From positions 5,280,001 through 5,344,000 of the forward strand of contig CM000151.3 in assembly GCA_000004695.1 (NCBI GenBank): a stretch of 64,000 bases of DNA, read 5' to 3'. Each line of letters opens with the position of its first letter. The first letter of the stretch is position 1. This document shows positions 5,440 through 62,916 of the stretch, piece after piece. The stretch is from Dictyostelium discoideum. Lineage: Eukaryota. A program made the translations under genes and the position numbers. The notes beneath the pieces were generated by a model. The model had not been told where the DNA came from and made no database searches. It was given only the letters and a program-made list of their open reading frames with translations.

Positions 5440-6993
5440 TTATTATTAATAAATTTATTATTAATAAATTTATTATTAATAAATTTATTATTTTATTATT
5501 TTATTATTATTATTATTTTTTTTTAAAAAACTTACATCACCATCAAAATTAAAAAGATTTGATAAAAATTCAATTTCAATATTTAAAGAATCTTCAAGAT
5601 TTAAATATTCAATTATACCTTTACCATAATTTATTGAAAGTATTAAAGCAACTTGATAAGATTTTCCTTTTAATTTAAAATTATCTTGTAAATCATTTTC
5701 CATTATTTGATAATTAAAACCAGGAATAAATTGTAATGATCCAGGTACTGGCCATAATGGATTAATATTATCGATTGGTGATAGAATTGAATAAGGATTA
5801 CAAGAACTAAATTTTGGACAATAGAAATTTTGATTACTTTTTGTTATAATCTTTGAAGATTGAATCAATGCTAATGATGCCTCTAATAAACCCATTGAAC
5901 TAATTGGTTTCATAATTAAACCTTGACTCTTTATAATTGATATTGAATTTGGATAACCTAAAGAATCTTCACAATATTCATTTAGGCAATCCATTTTCAA
6001 GTATAATAATGTTGGATTTTCAAAATAAATTGTTAAACTATTAAATTTATTATAACCATCATCTTTAAAATAAAATAAAAATAAAGAATTAGTAAATTTT
6101 TAAAAAATGATTTTTTTTTTTTTTATTTTTTTTTTATACTTACAACTTTTAATAATCCATTTTGAATTTTGATCATTTGGTTCAGTAATTAAAGGATCAT
6201 CAGTTATAAATAAAGTTGATTCTTCAGCAAAGAAATTAATTAAATAAAATCCAGGATCTTTTACATCAAAACTATATAAAGGATCAGCTATTGTTAAATG
6301 ATTACCCAGGTTTATACATGTATGGTTTGAATCAATATTTACACAATTGGTTGTGTAAGTGTCACCATCTATTGAGGTTGGAATATTTTGATAATTAATT
6401 TCAATTGAAAAAGTTGCTTCGAAAGTTATTGGTGAAATATCCAAGAAATAAGTACCAACATAATACAATAGATTACTACTTTCTGGGCAAACATTTAATA
6501 GTATCTCACTTTCTAATGAATTGAATCTATAAAAATCTTTTTTAAAATGTGAACCAATCATATCTCCATTTAGTATTGTAAATGTGAAAGTTCCTTTGAT
6601 AGGTATCAACTTTATTGTAAAACCTAAATTTGGTTTATCATTTAAAAATCTAAATTGGGTGATGTTTTTGAGAGTATAGTTTGTTGTTGTTGGTGTTGTT
6701 GTTTGGCTAATTTCTAAATTCACCCATTGTTCTGTTTCATCCAATTCAATGCATTTAGGGTTTACACAATTTTCTGTTGGATTATTGGATTTAGTATAAT
6801 CACATAAACATGTACTTTCTGTATCATTATTAAATGTAATTACATTCCCAGTATCAACAGTAAGTGGGCACCCAATTGCAGAATAACGATATAAATCTTC
6901 ATCAAATTCTATATCATATAATGCATACGAAATATCGACCCCCATCGTTGTCACATTCTTATTATAAACAATTTTTTTGATATTACATTTATT

Positions 6994-7216: not shown

Positions 7217-7810
7217 TTTTATTTTTGTTCTAAACAAAATAAAAATAAAAAAAAAAAAATAATTTAAAAAAAAAAAAAAAAATATGAAAATAAAACTTTA
7301 TTTTTAGATTTTTTTTTTATTTCAAAGAAGAAGATTTTAAAAATAATTTGAAAAAAGTGAAAAAAAATCTAAAAAATTTTTTTTTTTTTTTTTATTTTAA
7401 TCACTTTTTTAATTTTTATAAACTTTATATAAAATCACATTTATTTTTTAAGAAAACCAAGAATCCCAGTTGTCAGAGAAAATTTGATTTATTTTATTTG
7501 TTTAATTTTTGTTTTTTTTTTTTTTTTTTTGTCAATTAAAATTCAAAGAAGATTTATTTATTTTTTTACACTAATTTTTTTATTATTGATTATTTTTTTT
7601 TTTATAGATTATTTTTTTTAAATTTTTTTTTTTATCTATTTTTTTTTTATATTATTAATATTTACAAAAAAATCAATTTTTTCATTTTTCTGAAAATATT
7701 ATAAAATTGTATATTATAAAATAATATATAATTTTATAATATTAATAAAATTATATATATTATTTTATATTAAGAGATAACTCTAAAATTTTTGGTGATT
7801 ATTATTATTA

Positions 7811-7815
7811 TTTTT

Positions 7816-7879
<64 letters not shown>
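7811..7879. repeat. Pure poly(T) homopolymer of about 70 nt
   Basis: Uninterrupted T run read directly from the sequence, in the intergenic region before the tRNA island. Confidence 0.9.
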
Positions 7880-7881
<2 letters not shown>

Positions 7882-8313
7882 TCAAAGAGTGTGTTGATGG
7901 AAGTGATAAATTGGTCTAAGTCGGGGTGGGAGTTTTGATTTTTTGAAAATAAAATTTTCCATTTATTTCTTTAATAAGTCTTTTTATAGGAAAAATAAAA
8001 TATTTTTTTTTTTTTTTTTTTCGTTTCAAATTTTGAATTGTATTATTACTTTTGATAAAAACATCTTTTTTGTCCAAACTTTTTTCTAAATCTTTTTTTA
8101 TTTTATCGTATGGCCGTGATTGATGTTGATGACATATTTAAATTGGTTTTTTTTATTGGAGTTTTATCCACAATTTCGCTTATTTTTTGTAGGCATTTGT
8201 GTTGCTTAATATTTGTGGTGTTGTTTGTAATTTTCATCTTCTTTTCTTTTTATTTATTTTATTTTTCCTTTAAAAAGTTAAAAATCTGGAAATTTTCTGA
8301 TTAAATTGGGTTC

Positions 8314-8350
<37 letters not shown>

Positions 8351-8578
8351 TTATAGAGAGTACTGAGTGAATTATTTTATTTTTAGAGATGTTTAGGAAG
8401 TGCTATTGCGTGAAGAGGTGAGTTCCATTGTCTTCTATATTGTAATAGCTTTAGCGAGATTAATGAGTCTAATTTATTTTGTTCCTCTGGCCGTTGCTTT
8501 GATTTGATTCTTAATGTTTTGTTTATAACCACTTGTATCCTATTTTTTCTTGTAGAAAATCGAAATTTTCCATAAAAA

Positions 8579-8668
8579 GCCCGTGTCGTATAGTGGTTAT
8601 TATATCTGTCTTGTACTTGTTACAAAAGCGATAACAGAGGGTCCTCAGTTCGATTCTGAGCTCGGGCA
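8579..8668 (+). tRNA. Intron-containing tRNA; my fold gives anticodon UGU (Thr) with a 17-nt intron after position 37, but the isotype is uncertain
   Basis: Acceptor GCCCGTG / CTCGGGC+A has one T-T mismatch. D-arm is GTAT-AGTGGTTA-TTAT. Anticodon stem TCTGT/ACAGA flanks 24 nt, which fits a 7-nt loop CTTGTA..A plus an intron CTTGTTACAAAAGCGAT. Variable loop GGGTC. T-arm CTCAG-TTCGATT-CTGAG. Followed by T7, a Pol III terminator. Confidence 0.6.
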
Positions 8669-10017
8669 CTTTTTTTTAAAAACCATCTTGATGGTCGTCT
8701 GTTCAATTCTTTTAATGAAACTAAATCAAATATTGAATTATATGAATTGGTGAAAGGACTATATTTGGAAGTACCTATTCCGAATTGGAATATAATAATC
8801 TTTCCATGTTAAATTTTATTAATCAGTATATTCTTTGGATCTTTAAAATTGGATCTTTTGGAAGGGATTTTCAAATTTTTACATTTTTGGAAGTTAGCTT
8901 TAGTGCAACACTTTTTTTTACCTGTGAACTTCTAGGGATTTCCTTGAGTCAGCGGTGTTTTTTAAATTGTATTTTATTTTTTTATTTTTTTTTTTTTTTT
9001 TAAATATAAATAAATTATTTCACAGATTTGGATCTTCAGCAATAATTGTTTATTTCGTTTATTTAGATCAGATTTAGATCTTTATTTTGTAAAGATCAAG
9101 TAAAAAATTAATTTATATCTAAAAAAAAAAATATATGGCCATCAATTTGCGATACCACACTGAATTGTTGAACATTAACACAATAATTTATATAAATGAT
9201 TTATTAGTTAAAAATACTCGCCTAAATTATTGCTCATGTTTTTTCAGAATCTTGTAATAGAAAAATATAATAAAATTAAATAAATATATATAAATTAAAA
9301 TAAAGTAATAATAATAAGTTGATGTTATCGAAAATATCTATAATTATAAATGTTTTTTATTATTGAAAATTTTTAATTTTTATATTTGAGATTTAAAATT
9401 ATGTTTATGAGTTTTTCAATTGATTGACATTAAAAACTCACCACGTGGCTTTTTCCAAAAGTCTAATTATATAAACATAAAATATTTTAGTTTGCGAGCG
9501 AGATTGTATCTAATTTATTATCTTGATAAAACATAATTTTATTGTATCAATTTAATTATTACACAATTATAATACAACACTGAATGGTTCTATAAAGCTA
9601 TAAGCTATGACCTCTAGACATTTTTCATATAAAAACACAATAATATCGATATTACACCAGATATGGATTTGTAATCAACTCTACAGTGATGACAAAATTC
9701 AATACTCAATATTAGACTCGATTTTATTCTCAAAAAATGGTATAAATCTGAATCCTGGGGCCACATAAATAATGTAAAAAATTTTAAACTATCAAATTTT
9801 GAGCAATTGAGTATCAATATATTTAAGCTATAACTCCAAAATAATAATAAATATTCTTAAATCAATTTTTTTATAAAAAAAAAAATCTAAACACTTATTA
9901 TTACTAAAGATCTAAATAAGGATTTGGGTCAAATTATTCAAATTATAATTTGCCACTAAAATTTTCCGAGATGACCAAGATTCGAACCTATGCTGTTTGT
10001 TTTATCCATAAAAAAAG

Positions 10018-10088
10018 TGCCGCGACCTGGAATCGAACCAGGGTCAACAGAGCCACAATCTGATGTACTACCACTATACTATCACGGC
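10018..10088 (-). tRNA. tRNA-His (anticodon GTG)
   Basis: Reverse complement reads GCCGTGATAGTATAGTGGTAGTACATCAGATTGTGGCTCTGTTGACCCTGGTTCGATTCCAGGTCGCGGCA. 7-bp acceptor stem with one G-U pair. D-stem GTAT/GTAC. Anticodon loop TTGTGGC. T-arm CCTGG-TTCGATT-CCAGG. Discriminator A. Confidence 0.85.
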
Positions 10089-10182
10089 GAATTTTACAAA
10101 AAGTGTCAAATTTGTGCTTTTTTTGTTATTACCAATTTTTTTACATAGTTTGGTCAATAATCGGGCAGAAACACAAAAATTG

Positions 10183-10241
10183 TATTAACTAAACCAATCG
10201 AACCAGGGTTATCAGAGCCATAATCTGATGTACTATCACCA
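10183..10241 (-). pseudogene. Degenerate partial copy of the tRNA-His gene (tandem duplicate about 170 bp upstream)
   Basis: ccaatcgaaccagggttatcagagccataatctgatgtactatcaccatactcacggcgaattt aligns with the intact gene at about 85% identity. It lacks the 3' acceptor strand, its T-stem no longer pairs, and the anticodon loop is mutated to TTATGGC. Confidence 0.6.
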
Positions 10242-10526
10242 TACTCACGGCGAATTTGATGTTTCTATGCCAATAATATATGAATGGTAAAAAATGAAGC
10301 TTTATCAATATTGTTTGTTTAATTAAAGAAAATATAACTAAATTTATTATCACTGTCAAACTGTGTGGGATAGTTTGTTTGATATTAAAAAACAAAAACA
10401 TCCGAGTATTTTATTTAAAAGTCCATAATTTATGATGCAATCTCATATTTATCAAAAAAATTTCACATTTAACTTTAATATCAAAATAATTTAAAAAAAC
10501 AAAAAAAAAAAATATAAATAGTTTTA

Positions 10527-11786
10527 TTAATTTCTTTGTATTCCATTTATTTTAAAGGAGGTAATACTCTTTTTTGTTTGTATTATTTTTTCTATTTCTT
10601 TGGTTAGTTTTTCATCTTCATCTTTAATACCTATTGTTAAACTATTGACCTTTTTGGGAAGAAATGAAAGGGATTCAATGTTTGTAAAGTTTGAACCAAG
10701 AGTTAGTGATGTTACAAATGGTGGAATACTGTTTGCTTTTAAATTTATATTATAATTGTGTAATTGTAAATCTGTTACAGAATAAGGTAGAAATCTTTTA
10801 TTAACAGGTTGTGTAAAATTAAAACCACATCTAAGTACTAATATTGATTCGTTTGGAAGATTAGTGCCATTTTCTTCAATGTTAAATTCATTGCCTAAAT
10901 CTAAATATTTAACAGATTCTGGTATTGAATCAAATTCAAGGTTTTGATTTAATTTATTAAATAAAAGATATTGAACAGATTGTGGTATTGCTCCTGGTAT
11001 TATCATTTTGTCATAAAAAGATAATGAAAGGTAGTTAATATCATTACCAATTGATTCTAATAAATCTGGTTCATTAGTTTCTAATTCTAATCTCTTTATA
11101 TTTGGTGATAAATACTTTTCAAATACTGAATCGCCTTCAATTTGAGTCTAAATATTAAATTTGTAAAAAAAAAAATTAGAATTTGGTTTCTTTCTTAGCA
11201 ATTTGTTTTTAACACTTACATTAGATAAAGATGTAATTAAACTTTCAATACAATGTCTAGCGTTTGTATCATACTGTAAACAATTTTGAATTATATTTTT
11301 AAATGAATTGGATAAGTGTTTTGGTATAGGAGGAATACCTTTATCATCTCTTTTAGACTTGGACAAATCCAAACCAGCCATTTCAATCATTGTACAACCA
11401 ATACAAAAAATATCAGATTTACTACCTGCTTTACCATTTTGTAATTTAACTTCTGGTGCCATATGTGAATCTGTACCTACAAATGAAAAATACTTTGAAC
11501 TCTTTTCAATTTGTTTTGATAATCCAAAATCTATGAATTTTACAATGATTTCATTATTTTTATCTTGAACCAAAAAGATGTGATCACCTTTAATATCACG
11601 ATGAATAACACCTGATTCGTGAATTTTCCTAAGTGCTTTGACGATTTTAATCATTAAAGATTTTATTTCTTCCTCTTCAAATCTTTTATTTGGTTTTTGT
11701 TTTATTAAGTCTGAAATGGATGTGGCATCTTCAATGTATTCTGTATAAATGTATTCCCCAATCTTCCTGAAAATGCTCATTATCAT
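10527..11786 (-). CDS. FNIP-repeat protein with a protein-kinase C-lobe (HRD and DFG intact); 2 exons
   Basis: Exon 11220..11786 contains VIHRDIKGDHIFL, IDFGLS and GTDSHMAPE. Donor TCT AAT|GTAAGT at 11219-11214, a 72-nt intron, and acceptor aatatttag| at 11148. Exon 10527..11147 continues in frame into FNIP repeats (LPxSVxxLxLGxxFNxxI). No Gly-loop or VAIK lysine is encoded upstream of MIMSIFRKIGEY, so the 5' end may be incomplete. Confidence 0.65.
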
Positions 11787-13512
11787 TTAACATATTATCT
11801 GTTGATTGATTAAATGTGTTTAAAGGTGGTGATTTTTTAAAATTAACTATTTTACCATTGATGTTTATTGATGTGATATGCGATGGTATATATTTTTTTA
11901 ATTCCTCTATTTTGATATCGTTTTTGAAACCAAATTTCAAATTGATTATTGATGAAGGAAGATTTGATAATGATTCAAAGTGAGCGAAATTTGAACCAAG
12001 GGTTAGCATTATTATTGATCGAGGGATACTATTAGGTAGTATTTTTAAATTGTAATTGTATAATTGTAGATCTGTAACTGATGAAGGGATGTATCTTTGA
12101 TTAATGGTAAATGTAAATCCAGTTCTTAGTGTTAGTATCGAATCTTCAGGAATTAAAATTCCATACTTTTCAATATCAAATCCATCACCAAAGTCTAAAA
12201 ATTCTGGAAGAGTTAAGTTTATTTCGTTTTGAGAAAATTGATTTAATTTATTAAATACAAGATGTTTAACAGATTGAGGAATTGATCGTTTTTTAAGAGG
12301 ATGGTTGAATGATGGTAGCTTTAAATACTTAATACTGTCTGGTAATATACCTGGATCTAAAGGATAGTTGTATGATTGTAATATTAAGTACTCTACACCA
12401 TTAAATATTACCTTACTTTCAAGTGGTTGATTGTAGGTTGGTAATTCTAAATATTTTATACCATGAAAAGTTGGTGGAACAATTACCTGATTGAAAAGTG
12501 GTAATGTGGTACATTCATTTGGAAGGTAAATTGGTTCTATTGTTTCCACTACGCTGTTTTTAATTACATAGTTGTACAATTCATTGGAATTGAATCTAGC
12601 ATTTGGTTTGATTTGTAAACAATGTTGGATAATGTTTTTAAAATGATTTGATAAATGATCAGGGATTACAGGAATACCATTAATATCTAGCAATTTTAGG
12701 TCACCACCTACAATTTCAATTAATGATGAATCATTAATTTCAAAATGTAATTCTGAATCAAATATGGAATGGTCAAAACCAATTATTTTAATAAAATCTG
12801 TAGGTAACATTTTATCATTTTCATCATAAAGTATAAGAATATTTTGGCATTTAATATCAAAATGAATTATACCCATATCATGAATACTCTTTATTGATTT
12901 TATTATTTCAGTAGCTACAATAAATTGTTCTTTTTTATTTAACTTTCCAAATAATCTAGATAATGGAATTGCTTTATCAATATATTCTAAATAAACGTTA
13001 AAAGTATTATTTCCATCTTTACCATACCCATACAACTTTGGAGAGCATTTGCAAATATTTAAAATATCTATAATCCCGACCTATTAACAATGGGTTAATT
13101 AAATTTATAATGGAGGAAATTTAAAGAGATTTTAAATAAGTATGCTTACATTTTTATGTTTTTTGGTATAATAAACTTTATTTTCTGAAATATTTTTTTG
13201 AGGTTTATATTCTTCATGAATATATTGAATAATTTCCCAGTTTTGTTCGACATGTATTGGGTTATCTGATAATTTGAGATCTCTAACCCTAGTGGTTAAT
13301 GTTTCAGATGTGGGCAATTGTTTATTGCATGGTAAATGGAGACATTCCACACTATTTGGTAATGTTCCTGGTGTGAGTGCTTGATTATAGGATGATAAAT
13401 CGAGACATTCCACACCATTTGGTAGTACTCCTGGTGTGAGTGCTTGATTATAGGATGATAAATCGAGATATTTTACAAAAGGTGAGACTTCGGCGGTAAA
13501 AACAAATTCTTT
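11731..13512 (-). CDS. Tandem paralogue: FNIP-repeat pseudokinase (HFD and GFD in place of HRD and DFG); no in-frame ATG found, so possibly a pseudogene
   Basis: Exon 11731..13080 (450 codons): degenerate kinase core KLYGYGKDGNNTFNVYLEYI...MGIIHFDIKCQNIL...IIGFDHS followed by about 10 FNIP repeats. It joins in phase to an upstream exon ending AAT|GTAAGC (donor 13149-13144; acceptor ttaatag| at 13081). The upstream exon frame (FNIP-like repeats plus a degenerate N-lobe) is open from a TGA near 13513 down to 13150 and contains no ATG, and no upstream ATG exon is evident before the DOCK gene 3' end. Confidence 0.5.
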
Positions 13513-13774
13513 TCATGTTGTTGGGATAACTCGAGTTATCTTTTTCAAAAAAAACTTTTTTGTTCAGAATTAATTCAATTATTCACTAATAGTTCCAATA
13601 TTATTTATTCACAACCAAAATAAAAAATATTAAAAAAAAAAAAAAAGAAAAAATTTCAATAATAATTTTTATTTTATTTTATTATTACAACAATTTATTT
13701 AAATAGTTTTTTTTTTTTTTTTTTTTTTTTTAATTTTATATATATATATTTTTAGTTTTTTTTTTTTTTTTTTT

Positions 13775-16700
13775 TTAGTCAGATTTAAAACCACTAGAAA
13801 GACGTTGAGTAAAAGATTTTCTACTAACATGAGAAGTTGATAATAAATTATTAAAATTTGAATCATCATCATTCTCTAATGAAATTGTACTACCACTACC
13901 AGTTGAATTTCTATTTGGATTTGAACTATTTCTATTATGAGATTTTGTTGGAGTATTGTTACCACTACTTGAACCAGTATTATTAATCATTGAGGAATTT
14001 AATTGAATAACTGGAGAACCACTACCACCAAAATTATTACTACTTCCATAGATACTACTATTACTAAGATTATTATTACTACTAGTGCCATTAGAATTTG
14101 AATTTAAAGTTGGATAATAGGAGCCTTCTGGTGGTAAAACACCTAAAGACTCCATTAAATCAGTTAATTGAATATAACCTTGTTCCATTTCTTCTTGGAA
14201 TTCTTGAGAGGATTGATTTTCAACTAAACCTTTATTAATGAATAATGCTTCAGAGCAACTACCCAAAAATAATGATAAACTTTTCTTTAACTTTTTAATT
14301 TGTTCCAATGGATAATTATAGGCACCACTTGTTGGGTCAGTTGCCAAAAATACTCTACAAATTTCCTGTGGACCAATGTTAACTTGTAATCTTAGAGTAC
14401 CTTGAAGTACTTGTTGAAGTGTTTTTGGATTTGGTACTTTTGAACGAACTTCATTTGAAATGGTTTCAGTTCGTTGATCAATGGTTTCAATTGAATTTTC
14501 AATGGGTGACAAGATAACCTCTTGTTTTGAAATCACAGAGATACGTTTCTTTGTATATGGGAAATAGTTTGATGTCTTTAGAATGGTTTTACGTTTATAT
14601 TGTTCAGCGATTGAATTTGCACGACCTGCACCACTTTCAATGAATGGAGTTTCGAAAATGAATCGATTCAAATGAACGATTCTATCGAATGGAGTTCTAC
14701 GACCAACCAATTCCTCCTCAGTAAAGTAGGGTACAACAGAGGTAATTTGAAGATAACATTTGGCAGCATCTTGTTCAATCGATGAAATATCTACAGTTGA
14801 ACCTTCAATGATTACAATTGAATCCTCTGGTACAGAGAGTTTCTTTGAATAAAGTGATTTCAAACGATCTTTAATCTCGACCAATCTTGTAATCTTTGGT
14901 TCTTTATAGATGAATTCTTTACCATTCATCTCTTCAAATCTCTTTCCATAGAGACCAACTCTATAGTATGAACCAAGCATACGAGATTGAGTATTTGTAC
15001 ATTCAACAATTCTCTTGAAAATATCTTGTAAATCACCATGACAACGTGCCAACTCTTGATAATTTAAATGTTCTTCATGAACTGGTAATAACAATTTATA
15101 GACCAAATTTGCAATTTCAAAATATTCACTCTCTTTTAAGAGTAAAATAGCTTCTTGAACCAATTTCAAAAAGAAATCCAATGTAAACGATTGATTATCA
15201 TCGGCTCCATCTTCTTCACGTTCAATGAATGTATGAGATTCCTCTAAAGAGTTTTTATTAATTGCCATGAAATTATTTGAACCATTAATAGTTGGAATTG
15301 GTTTACCAATCAATGATAGATATTCAGCTACCAATGAAGACATATGTAAATAACATTGAGCTGCCTCTACATAATTCTCTTGAGTACGATGGAAATCTGC
15401 TAAACCTTGTAACCAACAAATACGAGTATCAGCATTACTTTTATTATTATCAGCGATACGATGATATAAATCGGCCACCATTTCAGGATCATCACGATGA
15501 TTATTAATCTTTATATTATCAATTACAAATGTATGTAAACGTTTGGTTAGATCTTCAATTTGTTTTGAGAATGATTTAGTACCAGCTTTATCAGCTTGAG
15601 CATAGGCATAGGAATTAATTGTATCCAATGATTTCTTTAAGAAATAATCATCATTGATACTTTTTACTATTGTTGATAAACCAATTGTAACTTGAGTTTT
15701 TGTACGTACGAAATTCTTTTTAGTTTGTTCGAAATTCTTTCTAAATAGAATATAGGTGAATGCTGATGCCTCTTCACGTGTGGTTTGATTCACTGAATTA
15801 CAATGACGAATTACTGCATTACAAAGATCCAAACAGAATGAATTATTATTTTCAAATAATATCTTTGGGAATCTATAAATGAATTGACGTAATGTTGCAT
15901 AAAGTTTTGGTACCAATTGAACTGGTTGATTCTTTTTTAACATTGAATGTAAAAGATTGAATATCTTTTCAATTACATCGAAATAATGTGTTGTTTTAAG
16001 ATCTCTATCGTATTCACACATAAATTCATCAACAACATCTAAAACTACAGATCCAACTTCCAATGCTAAATGACTCTCTAATCTATCATCATAATCTGAA
16101 ATATTAATTTTATTTTGTGCTAATGTACTTTTCATTCTTTTTTCATTTCTAAGTGTACCACTACCTGATGAAACATCTCTTGTTGTACTTGGTGAATAAT
16201 TTGAATTATTATTTTGATTTTGATATCCTGATCCTGATCCATTTAATGATGATGTTGATGTTGATTCAATTAAACTACCACCACTACTACCACTTGAACC
16301 ACTACTTTTTGATGAATAACCTGAACCACTACCACCACCACTACTTGTTACAAATGATGTTGATAATAAATTTGAATTACTTGTACTATTAATTAAAATA
16401 GTTGAAGATGATGGACTACCACTAACATTATTATTATTATTATTACTACTACCAACATTATTATTATTAGAATAATTATTTTCTAAAACACTCTTTCTTG
16501 AATCAACTCTTTTTTCACGTAATGATCTATTATATAATTTTTTACTACCATATGGTGAATTTCTAGAATTTGAATAAAAATCTTCTAAAATTGATTTAGC
16601 AGTTGAAGTACGTAAAGATGTTGAAGATTCAACTTTATCCATTAAAATTTCTTTACCAACAAATTCGAAAATCTCTAAACATTGATTTAAAATATCAAAT

Positions 16701-34060: not shown

Positions 34061-34109
34061 TGGGACAGGGATCGAACCAACGATCTTAACTTCGAATGTA
34101 ATATAAAAC
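34061..34109 (-). other. tRNA-like 3' fragment (..GTTGGTTCGATCCCTGTCCCA) directly abutting tRNA-Met
   Basis: Contains a T-loop-like GGTTCGATCC motif and a CCCA end but does not fold as a complete tRNA. A partial copy of the tRNA-Met 5' end plus its flank recurs at 34342-34365. Confidence 0.4.
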
Positions 34110-34182
34110 TGTCAAGTCAGAGGATCGAACTCTGGACCTTAGGATTATGAGACCTACGCTCTACCAACTGAGCCAACCTGAC
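34110..34182 (-). tRNA. Elongator tRNA-Met (anticodon CAT)
   Basis: Reverse complement reads GTCAGGTTGGCTCAGTTGGTAGAGCGTAGGTCTCATAATCCTAAGGTCCAGAGTTCGATCCTCTGACTTGACA. Anticodon loop CTCATAA. T-loop TTCGATC, which is not the initiator GATCGAAA. The 31-39 U-U mismatch typical of elongator tRNA-Met is present. Confidence 0.85.
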
Positions 34183-34867
34183 ATCTTGATGTTTTTTTAT
34201 TTTTTTTTGCTGGAATCGATGTACTAACTTTTTCCCAAAAATTCTCCATTTTAATTATTTAGCATCTCAAGGAGAAGCAACTAATAATTGCGTTATCCAA
34301 TTCAAAAAAAAAAACTTGTTCTAAAAAAATCTAGCAACTAAGCCAACCTGACATGTTGATGTTTTTTTGTAATAAAGCTTATTTATTAATTTAAGTTGTT
34401 TTGTTTTTTGAAAATTCTTGGTAGGTTTAAGTTGATAAAACAGTTTTGGAATAATTGACTATCTTTTGATGATCTTCTCTTCTTGTTTTACTGAGAGCCG
34501 ACTATATCTGTTCAACTAAAATCTAAATACATGGGAAACAAATTTCTAAACTTCCTTTATAAAATTAAGAGGCCTAGAAAACCTACAACTATTACTTTTT
34601 TAAATTTAACTAACATAATAAAAAAATAAGATAATAAAATAATAATAATAACCATGGTATAATAAATTGTCTTATTGAGAGAAAAAAAAAAAAAAAAAAA
34701 AAATTATATATATATATATAAATATATAATAACTAATTTACAAATATTACATACTCTAAAAAAATATTATTTTAATGTGTAAATGTGTTTGAAAGTCATT
34801 ATTATTTATTTTCTCTAAATATTATAAAGATAATTTAACAAACACTCTTTTCTTGGAGAATAAATTT

Positions 34868-46204: not shown

Positions 46205-47517
46205 ATGAAATTAATTAATATCTGTATTTTTATTTTTGCAATTATTTGTATTGAATCAACATTTGGTTTTTATACTGATAATTCAAATGTTATTAATTTA
46301 ACCAAAAAGAATTTCCAACAACAAGTTTTAAATTCACAACAAAATTGGATGGTTGAATTTTATGCTCCATGGTGTAAGTTTTTAATTTCTTTTTTTTTAA
46401 AAAAATTTCTTTTTTTATTAATACATTTTTTATTTTTTATAATAATTAATAAATAGGTGGACATTGTAAATCATTAAAACCAGAATATGAAAAAGTATCA
46501 AATAATTTAAAAGGATTAGTAAAGATTGGAGCAATTAATTGTGATGAAGAGAAAGAACTTTGTGGTCAATATCAAATTCAAGGTTTTCCAACATTGAAAT
46601 TCTTTTCAACAAATCCAAAGACTGGTAAAAAAGGTCAACCAGAGGATTATCAAGGTGCACGTTCAGCATCAGAGATTGCTAAATTCTCATTAGCAAAATT
46701 ACCATCAAATCATATTCAAAAAGTTTCACAAGATAATATCAATAAATTCCTTACTGGTACCAGCGATGCTAAAGCATTGCTATTCACTGATAAACCAAAA
46801 ACCACTGATCTCTATAAAGCATTATCAGTTGATTTCTTTAAAACCTTAACATTGGGTGAAGCTAGAAATTTAAATAAAGAAACTTTAGAGAAATTCAATA
46901 TTGATAAATTTCCAACACTTTTAGTCTTTACAAATGATGATGGTGAAACTTTTACAAAATTCGATGGTAAATTAACTCATTCAACAATTTATAAATTTTT
47001 AGAACCATTCTCAAAAAAATCAAATAATGATAACAATAATAACAATAATAATAATAATAATGAAGAATCAACAAAAACAACAACAACTGAAAAAGATCCA
47101 GCATCTGAAAAATTTATTGAAATTAAAGATGAAAAATCATTTGAAAAATCATGTTCAACTGGATTATGCATTGTTGCATTATTTGATCAATCATCAATTG
47201 ATGATAAAGAATTAAATGAAAAATATTTAGAACTTTTAAATACAGTTTCACAAAATTTCATTGGTAGAATGAAATTCGTTTGGGTTGATGTCTCTGTTCA
47301 TGATAAAATCGTTCCACAATTCGATTTATCTGGAACTCCAAATATTTTCGTTATCAATAATAGTAAAAAGAGATACACTCCATTCATGGGTTCCTTCTCT
47401 GATGAATCTTTAAACTCATTCTTTAAATCTGTTTTATCAGGTCTTAAAAAAGCAATTCCATTCACTGATTCTCCAAAATTTAATTCACAACAAAAAAAAC
47501 AAAAAGATGAACTTTAA
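46205..47517 (+). CDS. Thioredoxin-domain protein of the PDI family (signal peptide, one WCGHCK active site); 2 exons
   Basis: Exon 1 46205..46373 ends TGG T|GTAAGT. Exon 2 46457..47517 follows aaatag|GT GGA CAT TGT, reconstituting YAPWCGHCK. An N-terminal signal peptide MKLINICIFIFAIICIESTFG is present. The C-terminal ~250 aa are a non-catalytic domain. Confidence 0.85.
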
Positions 47518-59599: not shown

Positions 59600-60709
<1,110 letters not shown>

Positions 60710-61224: not shown

Positions 61225-62916
61225 TTATTTAATATAAGTTATCATATTTTGTTTTTTATATCCACCCCATGATGAATAATAATTAAAATTATCAAATTTA
61301 AATGATTTAATATGTGGATATTTTTTAATTAAATTATAAAATATGAATCTTTCAGAGTAGTAGCCTAAATAAACCCAATTTGTATTAAACACTATGGAAT
61401 GAAAGTGAATAATATTTTGATTTCTTTTAATTATATTTTTAAATATTTGTGGAGTATTTGATGATTTAAGTGTAAACTTTTTCAAAGATTTAATTGATAC
61501 CACTAAATTTGTAATTTCTTTAAAAAATGAAAATGAATTTAAGTTTGAATTATCAATATTAGAAGGCCATTCGAAATCACCTTTATCCTGTAAAACACTA
61601 TTACAAAATTGGTTAATTATTAAATGTTGTAATCTACTATTATTATTACTAAACAATTCTGAAACTATTTTCCAATTTATTTTTACAAGTTTTTCATATT
61701 CATTGATATTATTTGACATTTGTGAATAATCAATATTAATCAATGGTTTATATCTTTGATTATTTATACAATTAATACATGGAGATAATGAATATTTCAA
61801 TTTCTCTTGATCATTTGATAAGAAATACATTAAATTCTTAAAACAGAAATTTACAGAAACTTCTTTCAATCGATTTGATGAACTTAATATTAATGCAATA
61901 TCTTCAAGTGTTAAATCTAAAATACCAACTGTTATTAAACTTTCAATTATTGATAAATAATTAATACCATTATTAAATGTATTATCATTAATACCATTAT
62001 CATTAACTCCTGATAATAAGTAAAGAAATGATTTAGAAGATATTTTTAAAAATGTAATGTTTTTAATTGAATGTGACCATTTATTAAAAAAATTTAATAT
62101 TTCTATCTTATTTTCATTATTATTTTCACAATAATATATATTTATTGTATAAATTTTAGAAACTTTTAATGTTTGACTGGGATCATCAATTATTCTAAGT
62201 TGCGAAAATTCTTTTAAGTTAATTTTATTAATAAAACCACCAATTAATGGATCATTCTCATAGTTTGGAATATTGACATGAGTTGACCTATTAAAACATA
62301 ATGATGATGATAATTCTTTATCTTTATTTGTTGTTGTTATAATTATCTTTTTAATAATAATCATTCCTTCTGAATCTGAATCTGAATCTGAAGATGATGA
62401 TGAAGATGATGATGATGGTGACGATTTTAAAATCATAAGTTCATTTTTATCATTAATTTTTAAAGTTAAATTGATTTTCGATAAAAAAGATATTAATTGA
62501 TCCATTGATTCACATTTTAAATATTTACAATTTGAAAGTTTAATTATTGAATAATCATTAGTTATTTTGGTTGGTGATGGTTCAATGTCGATGTTGACAA
62601 TGTTATCATTAGATATAGCAGTGTTTAATAATTTATAATTAATTTTATAAACATTTATATTGTTTGAAACAATTTGAAACCAATCTTTACAAACTAATGA
62701 TAGCTTTAATATTAATTGATTTAATTCAATATTAATTTCAAAATATTCTAAACCATTAAATTTATTTTTATTTTTACTATAATAATTTATAAATCGACAT
62801 AATTTAAAAACAATTGAATTTTGAATATATGTTGGTAATTTTGAAAAATTATTATTATTATTATTATTTTTATTATCAAAGATGTAATTTGATATATTTT
62901 TTATAATGCTTTTCAT
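61225..62916 (-). CDS. Asn-rich F-box-like/LRR-like hypothetical protein; paralogue of 40535..42385
   Basis: 563-codon ORF. It shares LPTYIQNSIVFKLCRFINYY (compare LPLYIQKQIIKLLCNHINYN), LSLVCKDWFQIVSNNINV (compare LSLALVNKDWFKTLSDNIRV), NFCFKNLMYFLSNDQEKLKYS and a C-terminal PHIKSFKF motif with the 40.5-kb gene. Confidence 0.7.
   Translation of the reverse strand: MKSIIKNISNYIFDNKNNNNNNNFSKLPTYIQNSIVFKLCRFINYYSKNKNKFNGLEYFEINIELNQLILKLSLVCKDWFQIVSNNINVYKINYKLLNTAISNDNIVNIDIEPSPTKITNDYSIIKLSNCKYLKCESMDQLISFLSKINLTLKINDKNELMILKSSPSSSSSSSSSDSDSDSEGMIIIKKIIITTTNKDKELSSSLCFNRSTHVNIPNYENDPLIGGFINKINLKEFSQLRIIDDPSQTLKVSKIYTINIYYCENNNENKIEILNFFNKWSHSIKNITFLKISSKSFLYLLSGVNDNGINDNTFNNGINYLSIIESLITVGILDLTLEDIALILSSSNRLKEVSVNFCFKNLMYFLSNDQEKLKYSLSPCINCINNQRYKPLINIDYSQMSNNINEYEKLVKINWKIVSELFSNNNSRLQHLIINQFCNSVLQDKGDFEWPSNIDNSNLNSFSFFKEITNLVVSIKSLKKFTLKSSNTPQIFKNIIKRNQNIIHFHSIVFNTNWVYLGYYSERFIFYNLIKKYPHIKSFKFDNFNYYSSWGGYKKQNMITYIK

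Follow-up and report, generated by a model that had tools for sequence, protein, structure and literature searches.

In Dictyostelium discoideum, 61% of transfer RNA (tRNA) genes carry a TRE retrotransposon. The stacking of these elements, with TRE5 upstream and TRE3 downstream of tRNA genes, has been in the literature since the 1990s. Here, we describe a locus on D. discoideum chromosome 2, located in a 64,000-nt stretch of DNA (GenBank assembly GCA_000004695.1, contig CM000151.3, positions 5,280,001 to 5,344,000 of the forward strand) that we refer to as “the window” and whose coordinates we use throughout. We are highly confident that this locus, centered on a convergent pair of genes for tRNA-Thr and tRNA-His, is an ordinary tRNA-gene landing pad for tRNA-targeted non-LTR (LTR, long terminal repeat) retrotransposons, with debris of both TRE5 and TRE3. 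Loci of this type are already known, and their stacked layout is well described.

Several published properties of these elements bear on the locus. First, TRE5-A has the layout AB-ORF1/ORF2-BC (ORF, open reading frame), in which the 3' B-module is unique to TRE5-A and the C-module is required for TRE5-A retrotransposition; TRE5-B has no C-module (PMC3159450). A TRE5-A element's 5' end faces the tRNA gene's 5' end (PMC3159450), at a distance of 37–90 bp upstream. Second, TRE3 elements lie downstream of their target tRNA gene and in the same orientation (PMC5911963), at distances of 14–305 bp in D. discoideum. Third, an external B box, which is a landmark for TRE3, has been published for ~80% of D. 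discoideum tRNA genes (PMC5911963). For the LTR retrotransposons DGLT-A and Skipper-2, which also occur at tRNA genes, the position criterion is 13–33 bp upstream or 8–23 bp downstream of a tRNA gene. ORF2 of TRE5-A specifies an endonuclease, reverse transcriptase and zinc-finger protein. If the published mechanism is carried over to this locus, TRE5 and TRE3 would recognize the RNA polymerase III transcription complex (TFIIIB/TFIIIC) on the tRNA genes, and insertion would proceed by target-primed reverse transcription, usually leaving 5'-truncated copies; repeated strikes at the same tRNA gene would produce stacked copies.

An earlier note on this DNA, made from the letters alone, had proposed that three GC-richer blocks near the tRNA genes are remnants of tRNA-targeted TRE retroelements. 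Homology to retrotransposon copies from other Dictyostelium assemblies bears this out. The first block (8340–8575) holds the last 63 codons of TRE5-A ORF2, and the second (8680–9000) contains the tail of a minus-strand TRE3 ORF2 (E 1e-10). The third (9120–9990) is a retroelement in part: positions 9572–9961 comprise a plus-strand TRE3 ORF2 tail (E 5e-31), and ~400 bp (9170–9571) are without a match. The feature is present within the proposed limits of 8300–10300, with TRE5 debris running ~500 bp further left, to 7816. The description of the blocks as non-coding-looking was half right, in that decayed coding sequence, from the 3' ends of retrotransposon ORF2, makes up much of the GC-richer DNA. 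Their composition is indeed atypical between 8300 and 9000 (29–35% GC at 8300–8700 and ~25% at 8700–9000, versus 8–14% in flanking intergenic DNA); the third block is uneven, with 13% GC at 9200–9400 and 20–27% at 9400–9900.

Convergent tRNA genes and the debris around them

Comparison sequences were obtained by joining the six-frame open pieces of the blocks into one protein query, which gave a single match, at the extreme C-terminus of P0004, a 1001-amino-acid protein with an RVT_1 domain from “Dictyostelium cf. discoideum”. With P0004 as the query, several groups of Dictyostelium reverse-transcriptase proteins were found, and their genomic loci, with 10-kb flanks, served as a small repeat library (L001–L011). 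For TRE3, a profile was made from four tails (L003, L005, L006 and L007), none of them from the window, and searched against the whole 64-kb window. Two other approaches were uninformative: AT-rich low-complexity matches dominated a permissive blastn search of the region against the window, likewise with the filter off, and none of nine large window ORFs and one exon-sized ORF matched a Pfam retroelement domain. The features are as follows.

7816–7879, minus strand: poly(A) of the distal TRE5 stub, 64 nt (a T-run on the plus strand), read from the sequence directly after the ORF2 stop codon
7880–7949, minus strand: TRE5-B-like stub, last ~22 codons of ORF2 (..SKNQNSHPDLDQFITSINTLFE*), without C-module; matches L008 14674–14745
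7933–7962, minus strand: possible second copy of the tRNA-Thr upstream flank (8543–8573); alignment score 16, null 99th percentile 15, null maximum 19
8003–8022, minus strand: A-run after the 3' B-module; in L001 and L002, the same A-run precedes a spacer and the C-module
8023–8318, minus strand: TRE5-A 3' B-module, including the ORF1 start MKITNNTTNIKQHKCLQK; 85–88% identical to both B-modules of L001 and L002
8319–8349, minus strand: TRE5-A A-run separating ORF2 from the 3' B-module; colinear with L001 and L002
8353–8541, minus strand: TRE5-A ORF2, last 63 codons, carrying two stop codons; 76–79% amino acid identity to the P0004 cluster, E 1e-23
8542–8578, no strand: 37-bp flank between the TRE5-A 5' end and tRNA-Thr, from the junction alignment
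8579–8669, plus strand: tRNA-Thr(UGU) gene; Rfam 47.7 bits for 8579–8668, ARAGORN -i
8700–8710, plus strand: external B box of tRNA-Thr (TGTTCAATTCT), at an offset of 31 bp, 4 mismatches
8735–8955, minus strand: M2, decayed TRE3 ORF2 tail ending ..SFHQFI*; from the profile and colinear peptides
8889->8735, minus strand: TRE3 profile match, E 1.1e-10
8968–9061, minus strand: M1, TRE3 3' untranslated region (UTR; 9061->9004) and poly(A) (9001->8968); 3' UTR of the L006/L007 type
9048->8988, minus strand: weak TRE3 profile match, E 4.7
9090–9131, plus strand: P1, probable TRE3 3' UTR end with A11; 88% over 42 nt to L006 14167–14207
9152–9169, plus strand: left copy of a direct repeat (ATACCACACTGAATTGTT), which may be an upstream continuation of P2
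9170–9571, no strand: X-core, AT-rich, 402 bp, 13–24% GC
9572–9961, plus strand: P2, 5'-truncated TRE3 copy with ORF2 tail, stop codon, A-run and degenerate 3' UTR
9581–9793, plus strand: TRE3 profile match within P2, E 5e-31
9978–9988, minus strand: external B box of tRNA-His (GGTTCGAATCT), at an offset of 29 bp, 1 mismatch to the consensus
10017–10088, minus strand: tRNA-His(GUG) gene; ARAGORN, Rfam 65 bits
10196–10257, minus strand: partial tRNA-His copy, 89% match to 10031–10094
34068–34183, minus strand: tRNA-Met(CAU) gene (34109–34183) with its external B box (GGTTCGATCCC) at an offset of 31 bp, 2 mismatches
46680–46766: weak, unrelated TRE3 profile match, E 5.9

The tRNA genes anchor this arrangement, with tRNA-Thr on the plus strand and tRNA-His on the minus strand pointing toward one another. 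The intron-containing plus-strand tRNA of the earlier note is tRNA-Thr(UGU), found by both Rfam and ARAGORN; its 17-nt intron (8616–8632) follows position 37 when ARAGORN is run with introns. Despite scoring 47.7 bits, this gene was absent from the whole-window Rfam scan at the gathering threshold (29), and only a local E-value scan caught it; speed filters can lose intron-containing tRNAs. The intact minus-strand tRNA-His and a degenerate copy ~170 bp away were also correctly recognized. The degenerate copy aligns over 64 bp at an offset of 169 bp and comprises 6 nt of shared 5' flank plus tRNA positions 1–58 with a 2-nt deletion, stopping inside the B box; an A box and most of the B box are thereby kept, and Rfam does not call it a tRNA. 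No link between this copy and any retroelement was detected, and it would be a local DNA-level duplication. Nothing was found in the stretch between the partial copy and the intact tRNA-His, or to the right of the copy.

An isolated T-arm-like motif had been described at 9970–10000 and counted among the tRNA fragments. The motif itself is there (GGTTCGAATCT), as the external B box of tRNA-His and not as a fragment of a tRNA. We scanned 150 bp downstream of 17 ARAGORN tRNA calls in the window and L001–L009 with the consensus GGTTCGAATCC. Four of the 17 calls lack the motif, one of them a “tRNA-Leu” at 60030 that has no Rfam support; with that call dropped, 13 of 16 tRNA genes (Rfam-supported or unchecked) have a B-box-like motif 29–37 bp downstream. 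Because the motif recurs at this distance behind most tRNA genes, we assign it to the tRNA-His gene unit, and such motifs should not be mistaken for tRNA fragments. The external B box of tRNA-Thr is more divergent, and a near-identical sequence (TGTTCAATTCC) lies 3' of a tRNA-Ala gene in L003. Around tRNA-Met(CAU), blastn against L001–L006, which hold both TRE5 and TRE3 copies, gave no TRE match at E<1e-8, so this gene may be unoccupied.

Matches to TRE5 and TRE3

The clearest element is the TRE5-A copy upstream of tRNA-Thr. The copy (8541->8003) is 5' truncated and lies on the strand opposite to tRNA-Thr, with its 5' end turned toward that gene's 5' end. The truncation point (~8541) and the start of tRNA-Thr (8579) leave 37 bp between them; both this distance and the orientation fit those published for TRE5-A. 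The type was established from two full elements, L001 and L002. Each begins with tandem ~215-bp units (A-modules), an A-run and a 332-bp B-module that holds the ORF1 start codon, and continues with ORF1, ORF2, an A-run, a second B-module that shares 98.8% identity with the first one, a C-module and oligo(A). This layout matches the published AB-ORF1/ORF2-BC structure, and we therefore take the elements to be of the TRE5-A type. The L001 element starts 49 bp upstream of a tRNA-Val gene and has a 15-bp target-site duplication. Window positions 8003–8530 align with the 3' ends of these elements at 84% identity over 546 bp (L002) and 83% (L001), and the N-terminus of the ORF1 protein P0006 aligns to the B-module at 8023–8318. 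A reading of the left block as two tandem TRE5 copies was dropped, since L001 and L002 show that ORF2, A-run and B-module form the internal layout of a single TRE5-A element.

In the ORF2 tail, nucleotide identity is 84% to L002 and 95% to L003 14438–14647, a TRE5-A ORF2-tail fragment from another D. discoideum isolate that aligns to window 8319–8528. The 5' truncation of the L003 fragment falls within ~10 nt of that of the window copy; the fragment stops at the A-run and lacks a B-module beyond it. For the window copy, the only candidate for a target-site duplication of the typical 12–16 bp at its junctions is A-rich. A ~30-nt sequence resembling the tRNA-Thr flank (7962->7933) sits 40 nt from the TRE5-A junction (p ~0.01); insertion of TRE5-A could have produced it as a long target-site duplication, although the alignment is suggestive only.

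Between the two tRNA genes, the debris is of the TRE3 type. Across the window, the profile gave only two matches at E<1, namely those within P2 and M2. Window positions 9584–9794 (+) are 75% identical to L006 13742–13961 and L007 6853–6634, and tblastx of this segment is frame-coherent; the ORF2 tail of P2 reads ..EWFYKAISYDL..HQIWICNQLYSD..KKWYKSESWGHINNVKNFK... P2 probably runs through the stop codon and an A-run (9875–9885) to ~9961, which leaves 17 bp to the external B box of tRNA-His. On the minus strand, the peptides of M2 are colinear with the L003 type, including NFKDPK and the terminal QFI*. M2 probably reaches ~8955, and the external B box of tRNA-Thr lies 27 bp beyond its stop codon. 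A reading of 8689–8907 as a Skipper-2 LTR with TG..CA ends was superseded by this match. M1 aligns over the full length of the L007/L006 3' UTR (score 31; maximum of 27 in 200 shuffles), with an A-run directly after it, and 9102–9131 forms a 30-nt inverted repeat with M1 (90% complementary). Poly(A) is clear at M1, A11 at P1, present only as an internal A-run at P2, and lacking at M2.

The comparison tail in L006 is the C-terminus of an ORF2 whose upstream part is P0040 (RVT_1), split off by an inserted element; it is colinear with the zinc-finger region of P0038. The same tail occurs, more diverged, in L003 and L005. The spacer tails belong to at least two subfamilies; two of them are minus-strand copies, and one or two are plus-strand copies. 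The element that interrupts the TRE3 ORF2 in L006 (12744–13500) resembles a miniature inverted-repeat transposable element, with terminal inverted repeats (CAGCAATGAAAATAACACC..) and an interior of repetitive TTTAAA-type units; a second copy (14215–14400) follows the poly(A) of the TRE3 element. LTR-type elements were found incidentally in L006 and L009; they do not match the region, and no LTR pair could be delimited in L006.

Proposed order of insertions and alternative readings

The geometry proposed in the earlier note stands for TRE5-A, upstream of tRNA-Thr; relative to the nearer tRNA gene, the TRE3 pieces depart from the textbook layout. From left to right, the order is tRNA-Thr (+), its external B box, M2 (−), M1 (−), P1 (+), P2 (+), the external B box of tRNA-His, and tRNA-His (−). 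Element-free sequence amounts to ~66 bp beside tRNA-Thr and ~55 bp beside tRNA-His, from which we infer that the two tRNA genes were probably once ~120 bp apart. We propose that M2, then M1, would have been targeted first, to tRNA-His, landing ~55 bp downstream of it. P2, then P1, would have been targeted later, to tRNA-Thr, landing at the 5' edge of M1, ~380 bp downstream. The tail of M2 would have been lost by later deletion, probably between A-runs, and the C-module of TRE5-A likewise, most simply through recombination or slippage between its flanking A-runs. Stacking explains the distances of the TRE3 copies from their targets only in part.

Several observations weigh against the reading of the locus as an ordinary landing pad. 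On the TRE5 side, the C-module (134 bp in TRE5-A) is absent after the A-run of the B-module, where the stub of another TRE5 family stands instead, and the window copy is only 84–88% identical to full copies. The family names used here (TRE5-A, TRE5-B-like and TRE3) would follow from structure and from homologues in other assemblies. On the TRE3 side, the X-core matches nothing in Rfam, in the protein database, in the 11 fetched loci or elsewhere in the window; P1 is weakly supported, being low-complexity sequence; and the far tail of P2, to 9961, is statistically borderline. M2 has neither 3' UTR nor poly(A), so it is no unaltered product of target-primed reverse transcription. The TRE3 tails, not the heads, point toward the nearer, opposite-strand tRNA gene, and the tRNA gene in the same orientation is now ~900 bp (P2) and ~1060 bp (M2) from the 5' ends of the copies. 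Lastly, the ~380 bp required by the proposed order still exceeds the published range for TRE3.

The alternative that fares best is that the TRE3 pieces were targeted to the nearer tRNA gene in inverted orientation, or that their order reflects deletions and rearrangements, with no clean sequence of insertions. Indeed, the M2 tail is 66 bp away from the 3' end of tRNA-Thr and the P2 tail 56 bp away from that of tRNA-His, distances that are normal for TRE3, and the loss of the M2 tail requires a deletion anyway. However, insertion in matching orientation, 5' end proximal, is the rule in the literature and holds for the fetched loci, where all five TRE3 tails with a nearby tRNA gene lie downstream of it and in its orientation. 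The outer copies, M2 and P2, are also the more decayed, which fits their being the oldest under the normal rule. We therefore regard this alternative as possible and rather doubtful. Three related explanations were rejected. Twin-priming inversion of one TRE3 copy fails because the pieces on the two strands cover overlapping element coordinates and come from different subfamilies; turning the entire spacer around would leave the geometry unchanged; and a lost tRNA gene inside 9062–9581 has left no tRNA or B-box trace.

The X-core interrupts the plus-strand debris. The earlier note had reported a recurring motif here, and ACACTGAAT is indeed found at 9157 and 9577; as a lone repeated 9-mer, it is at chance level in block-shuffled controls. 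It is contained in an 18-nt direct repeat (16/18 identical) that flanks the X-core at 9152–9169 and 9572–9589, the right copy of which is the start of the homology of P2. When the 402 bp are left out, the frame reads ..YMAINLRYHTEWFYKAISYDL.., resembling ..RFHKEYFEW.YKAIDYDL.. of other TRE3 copies; the short upstream match in frame, to the left of the X-core, is not significant alone. Because the right copy stands at the start of P2 and the frame is rejoined without the X-core, the X-core may have been inserted into P2 with a target-site duplication. Neither terminal poly(A) nor clear inverted repeats are present in it. A 420-bp tandem duplication was rejected, since only the first 18 nt are alike. 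We think it improbable that the locus adds something new in either of two ways: that the X-core is an uncharacterized non-autonomous mobile element with a target-site duplication, or that TRE3 can land ~380 bp from its tRNA gene, or inverted, where convergent tRNA genes share a ~120-bp spacer.

Little also speaks for the reading that the debris to the left of tRNA-Thr (8541->7816) represents one composite element from a single TRE5 subfamily, made up of the end of ORF2, a B-like module and a C-like tail. No gap separates its pieces, only a partial consensus of 879 bp is known for TRE5-C, and the window copy is 84–88% identical to TRE5-A, whereas the L003 fragment is 95% identical to the window copy. 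Against this, neither TRE5-B nor TRE5-C has a 3' B-module, and the C-modules published for TRE5-C and TRE5-A share 78% identity (PMC3159450). Moreover, the last 70 bp are unlike the C-module in L001 and L002 and encode the ORF2 C-terminus of another family, for which reason an interpretation of 7880–8002 as a diverged C-module was dropped. The best match of this stub is the ORF2 end of a TRE5 fragment (L008 14674–14745; score 44.5, null maximum 23), and it also matches the C-termini of P0020 and P0022. The possible duplicated tRNA-Thr flank lies between the two pieces. The preferred reading is thus of two TRE5 insertions. The stub lies beyond the TRE5-A copy in the same orientation, and its distal position makes it the older; the absence of a C-module fits TRE5-B, and the stub would belong to a second, TRE5-B-like family.

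Least likely by far is that the GC-richer blocks are unique functional non-coding DNA (promoters, untranslated regions or small RNA genes) without transposon debris: while Rfam and protein searches were empty for 9170–9571, 10089–10195 and 10258–10526, so that part of these could be ordinary unique sequence, the GC-rich parts match ORF2 tails that are repeated at other tRNA genes (E-values of 1e-10 to 1e-147), 7500–11000 has no RNA family at E<=1 except the two tRNAs and a weak sub-threshold Rfam match overlying tRNA-His, and the idea is already refuted for 7880–8541, 8735–9061 and 9572–9800.

Neighboring features and comparison with known systems

To the right of the locus, 10527–13035 (−) contains consecutive ORFs with protein-kinase and FNIP-repeat domains that apparently make up one or two multi-exon genes, the 3' end of which is only 270 bp from the partial tRNA-His copy. 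To the left, a 284-amino-acid ORF at 6100–6954 (−) looks like an exon of a secreted protein; a search of 5.8 billion protein sequences, AX4 entries included, gave no match at E<=1e-10, and it may be an unannotated gene or a pseudogene. The window ORF at 61228–62916 (563 amino acids) is identical to DDB_G0275319 of D. discoideum AX4. The ARAGORN call of tRNA-Leu(CAG), 95 nt long (60030–60124), lies inside a 369-amino-acid ORF (59600–60709); because Rfam gives no tRNA there even at E<=1, the call is probably a false positive. Between a DOCK-like gene that ends at 13775 and the FNIP-repeat kinase gene, a 119-bp stretch (13538–13653) is 80% identical to L005 8826–8941, which in a TRE3-type element lies immediately upstream of the ORF1-like gene; neither a tRNA nor any other Rfam family occurs in 12900–13900 around it.

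Beyond annotation, the locus matters little, being one more case of TRE5/TRE3 stacking. It does offer two small lessons. First, a convergent tRNA pair with interleaved TRE3 tails is a small natural test of the distance and orientation of TRE3 integration. Second, a TRE5-A copy without its C-module and a TRE3 copy without its tail would suggest that deletions between A-runs reshape the debris after insertion.

The closest known system is TRE5-A (formerly DRE), with which the proximal copy shares the ORF2 C-terminus, the A-run, the 3' B-module with the ORF1 start, the 5' truncation and a position 37 bp upstream of the tRNA gene; it differs in the missing C-module, in its 84–88% identity to full-length copies and in its uncertain target-site duplication. 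The distal stub resembles TRE5-B, or another TRE5 family without a C-module, in that poly(A) directly follows the ORF2 stop codon; it differs in comprising only ~70 bp plus the tail, under an inferred family name. The spacer pieces share with the TRE3 family (TRE3-A to TRE3-D) their ORF2 C-terminal tails, 3' UTR, poly(A) and place in DNA downstream of tRNA genes, and differ in that the tails face the nearer tRNA gene, one copy has no 3' end, the same-orientation tRNA gene is ~0.9–1.1 kb away, and at least two types are present. The external B boxes are those of other D. discoideum tRNA genes in consensus, position ~30 bp downstream and recurrence, with no differences. More distantly, yeast Ty3 and Ty1 at RNA polymerase III genes follow the same logic, with tRNA genes as safe insertion sites where repeated strikes pile up debris; unlike the TRE elements, they are LTR elements that use an integrase, insert only upstream and encode unrelated proteins.

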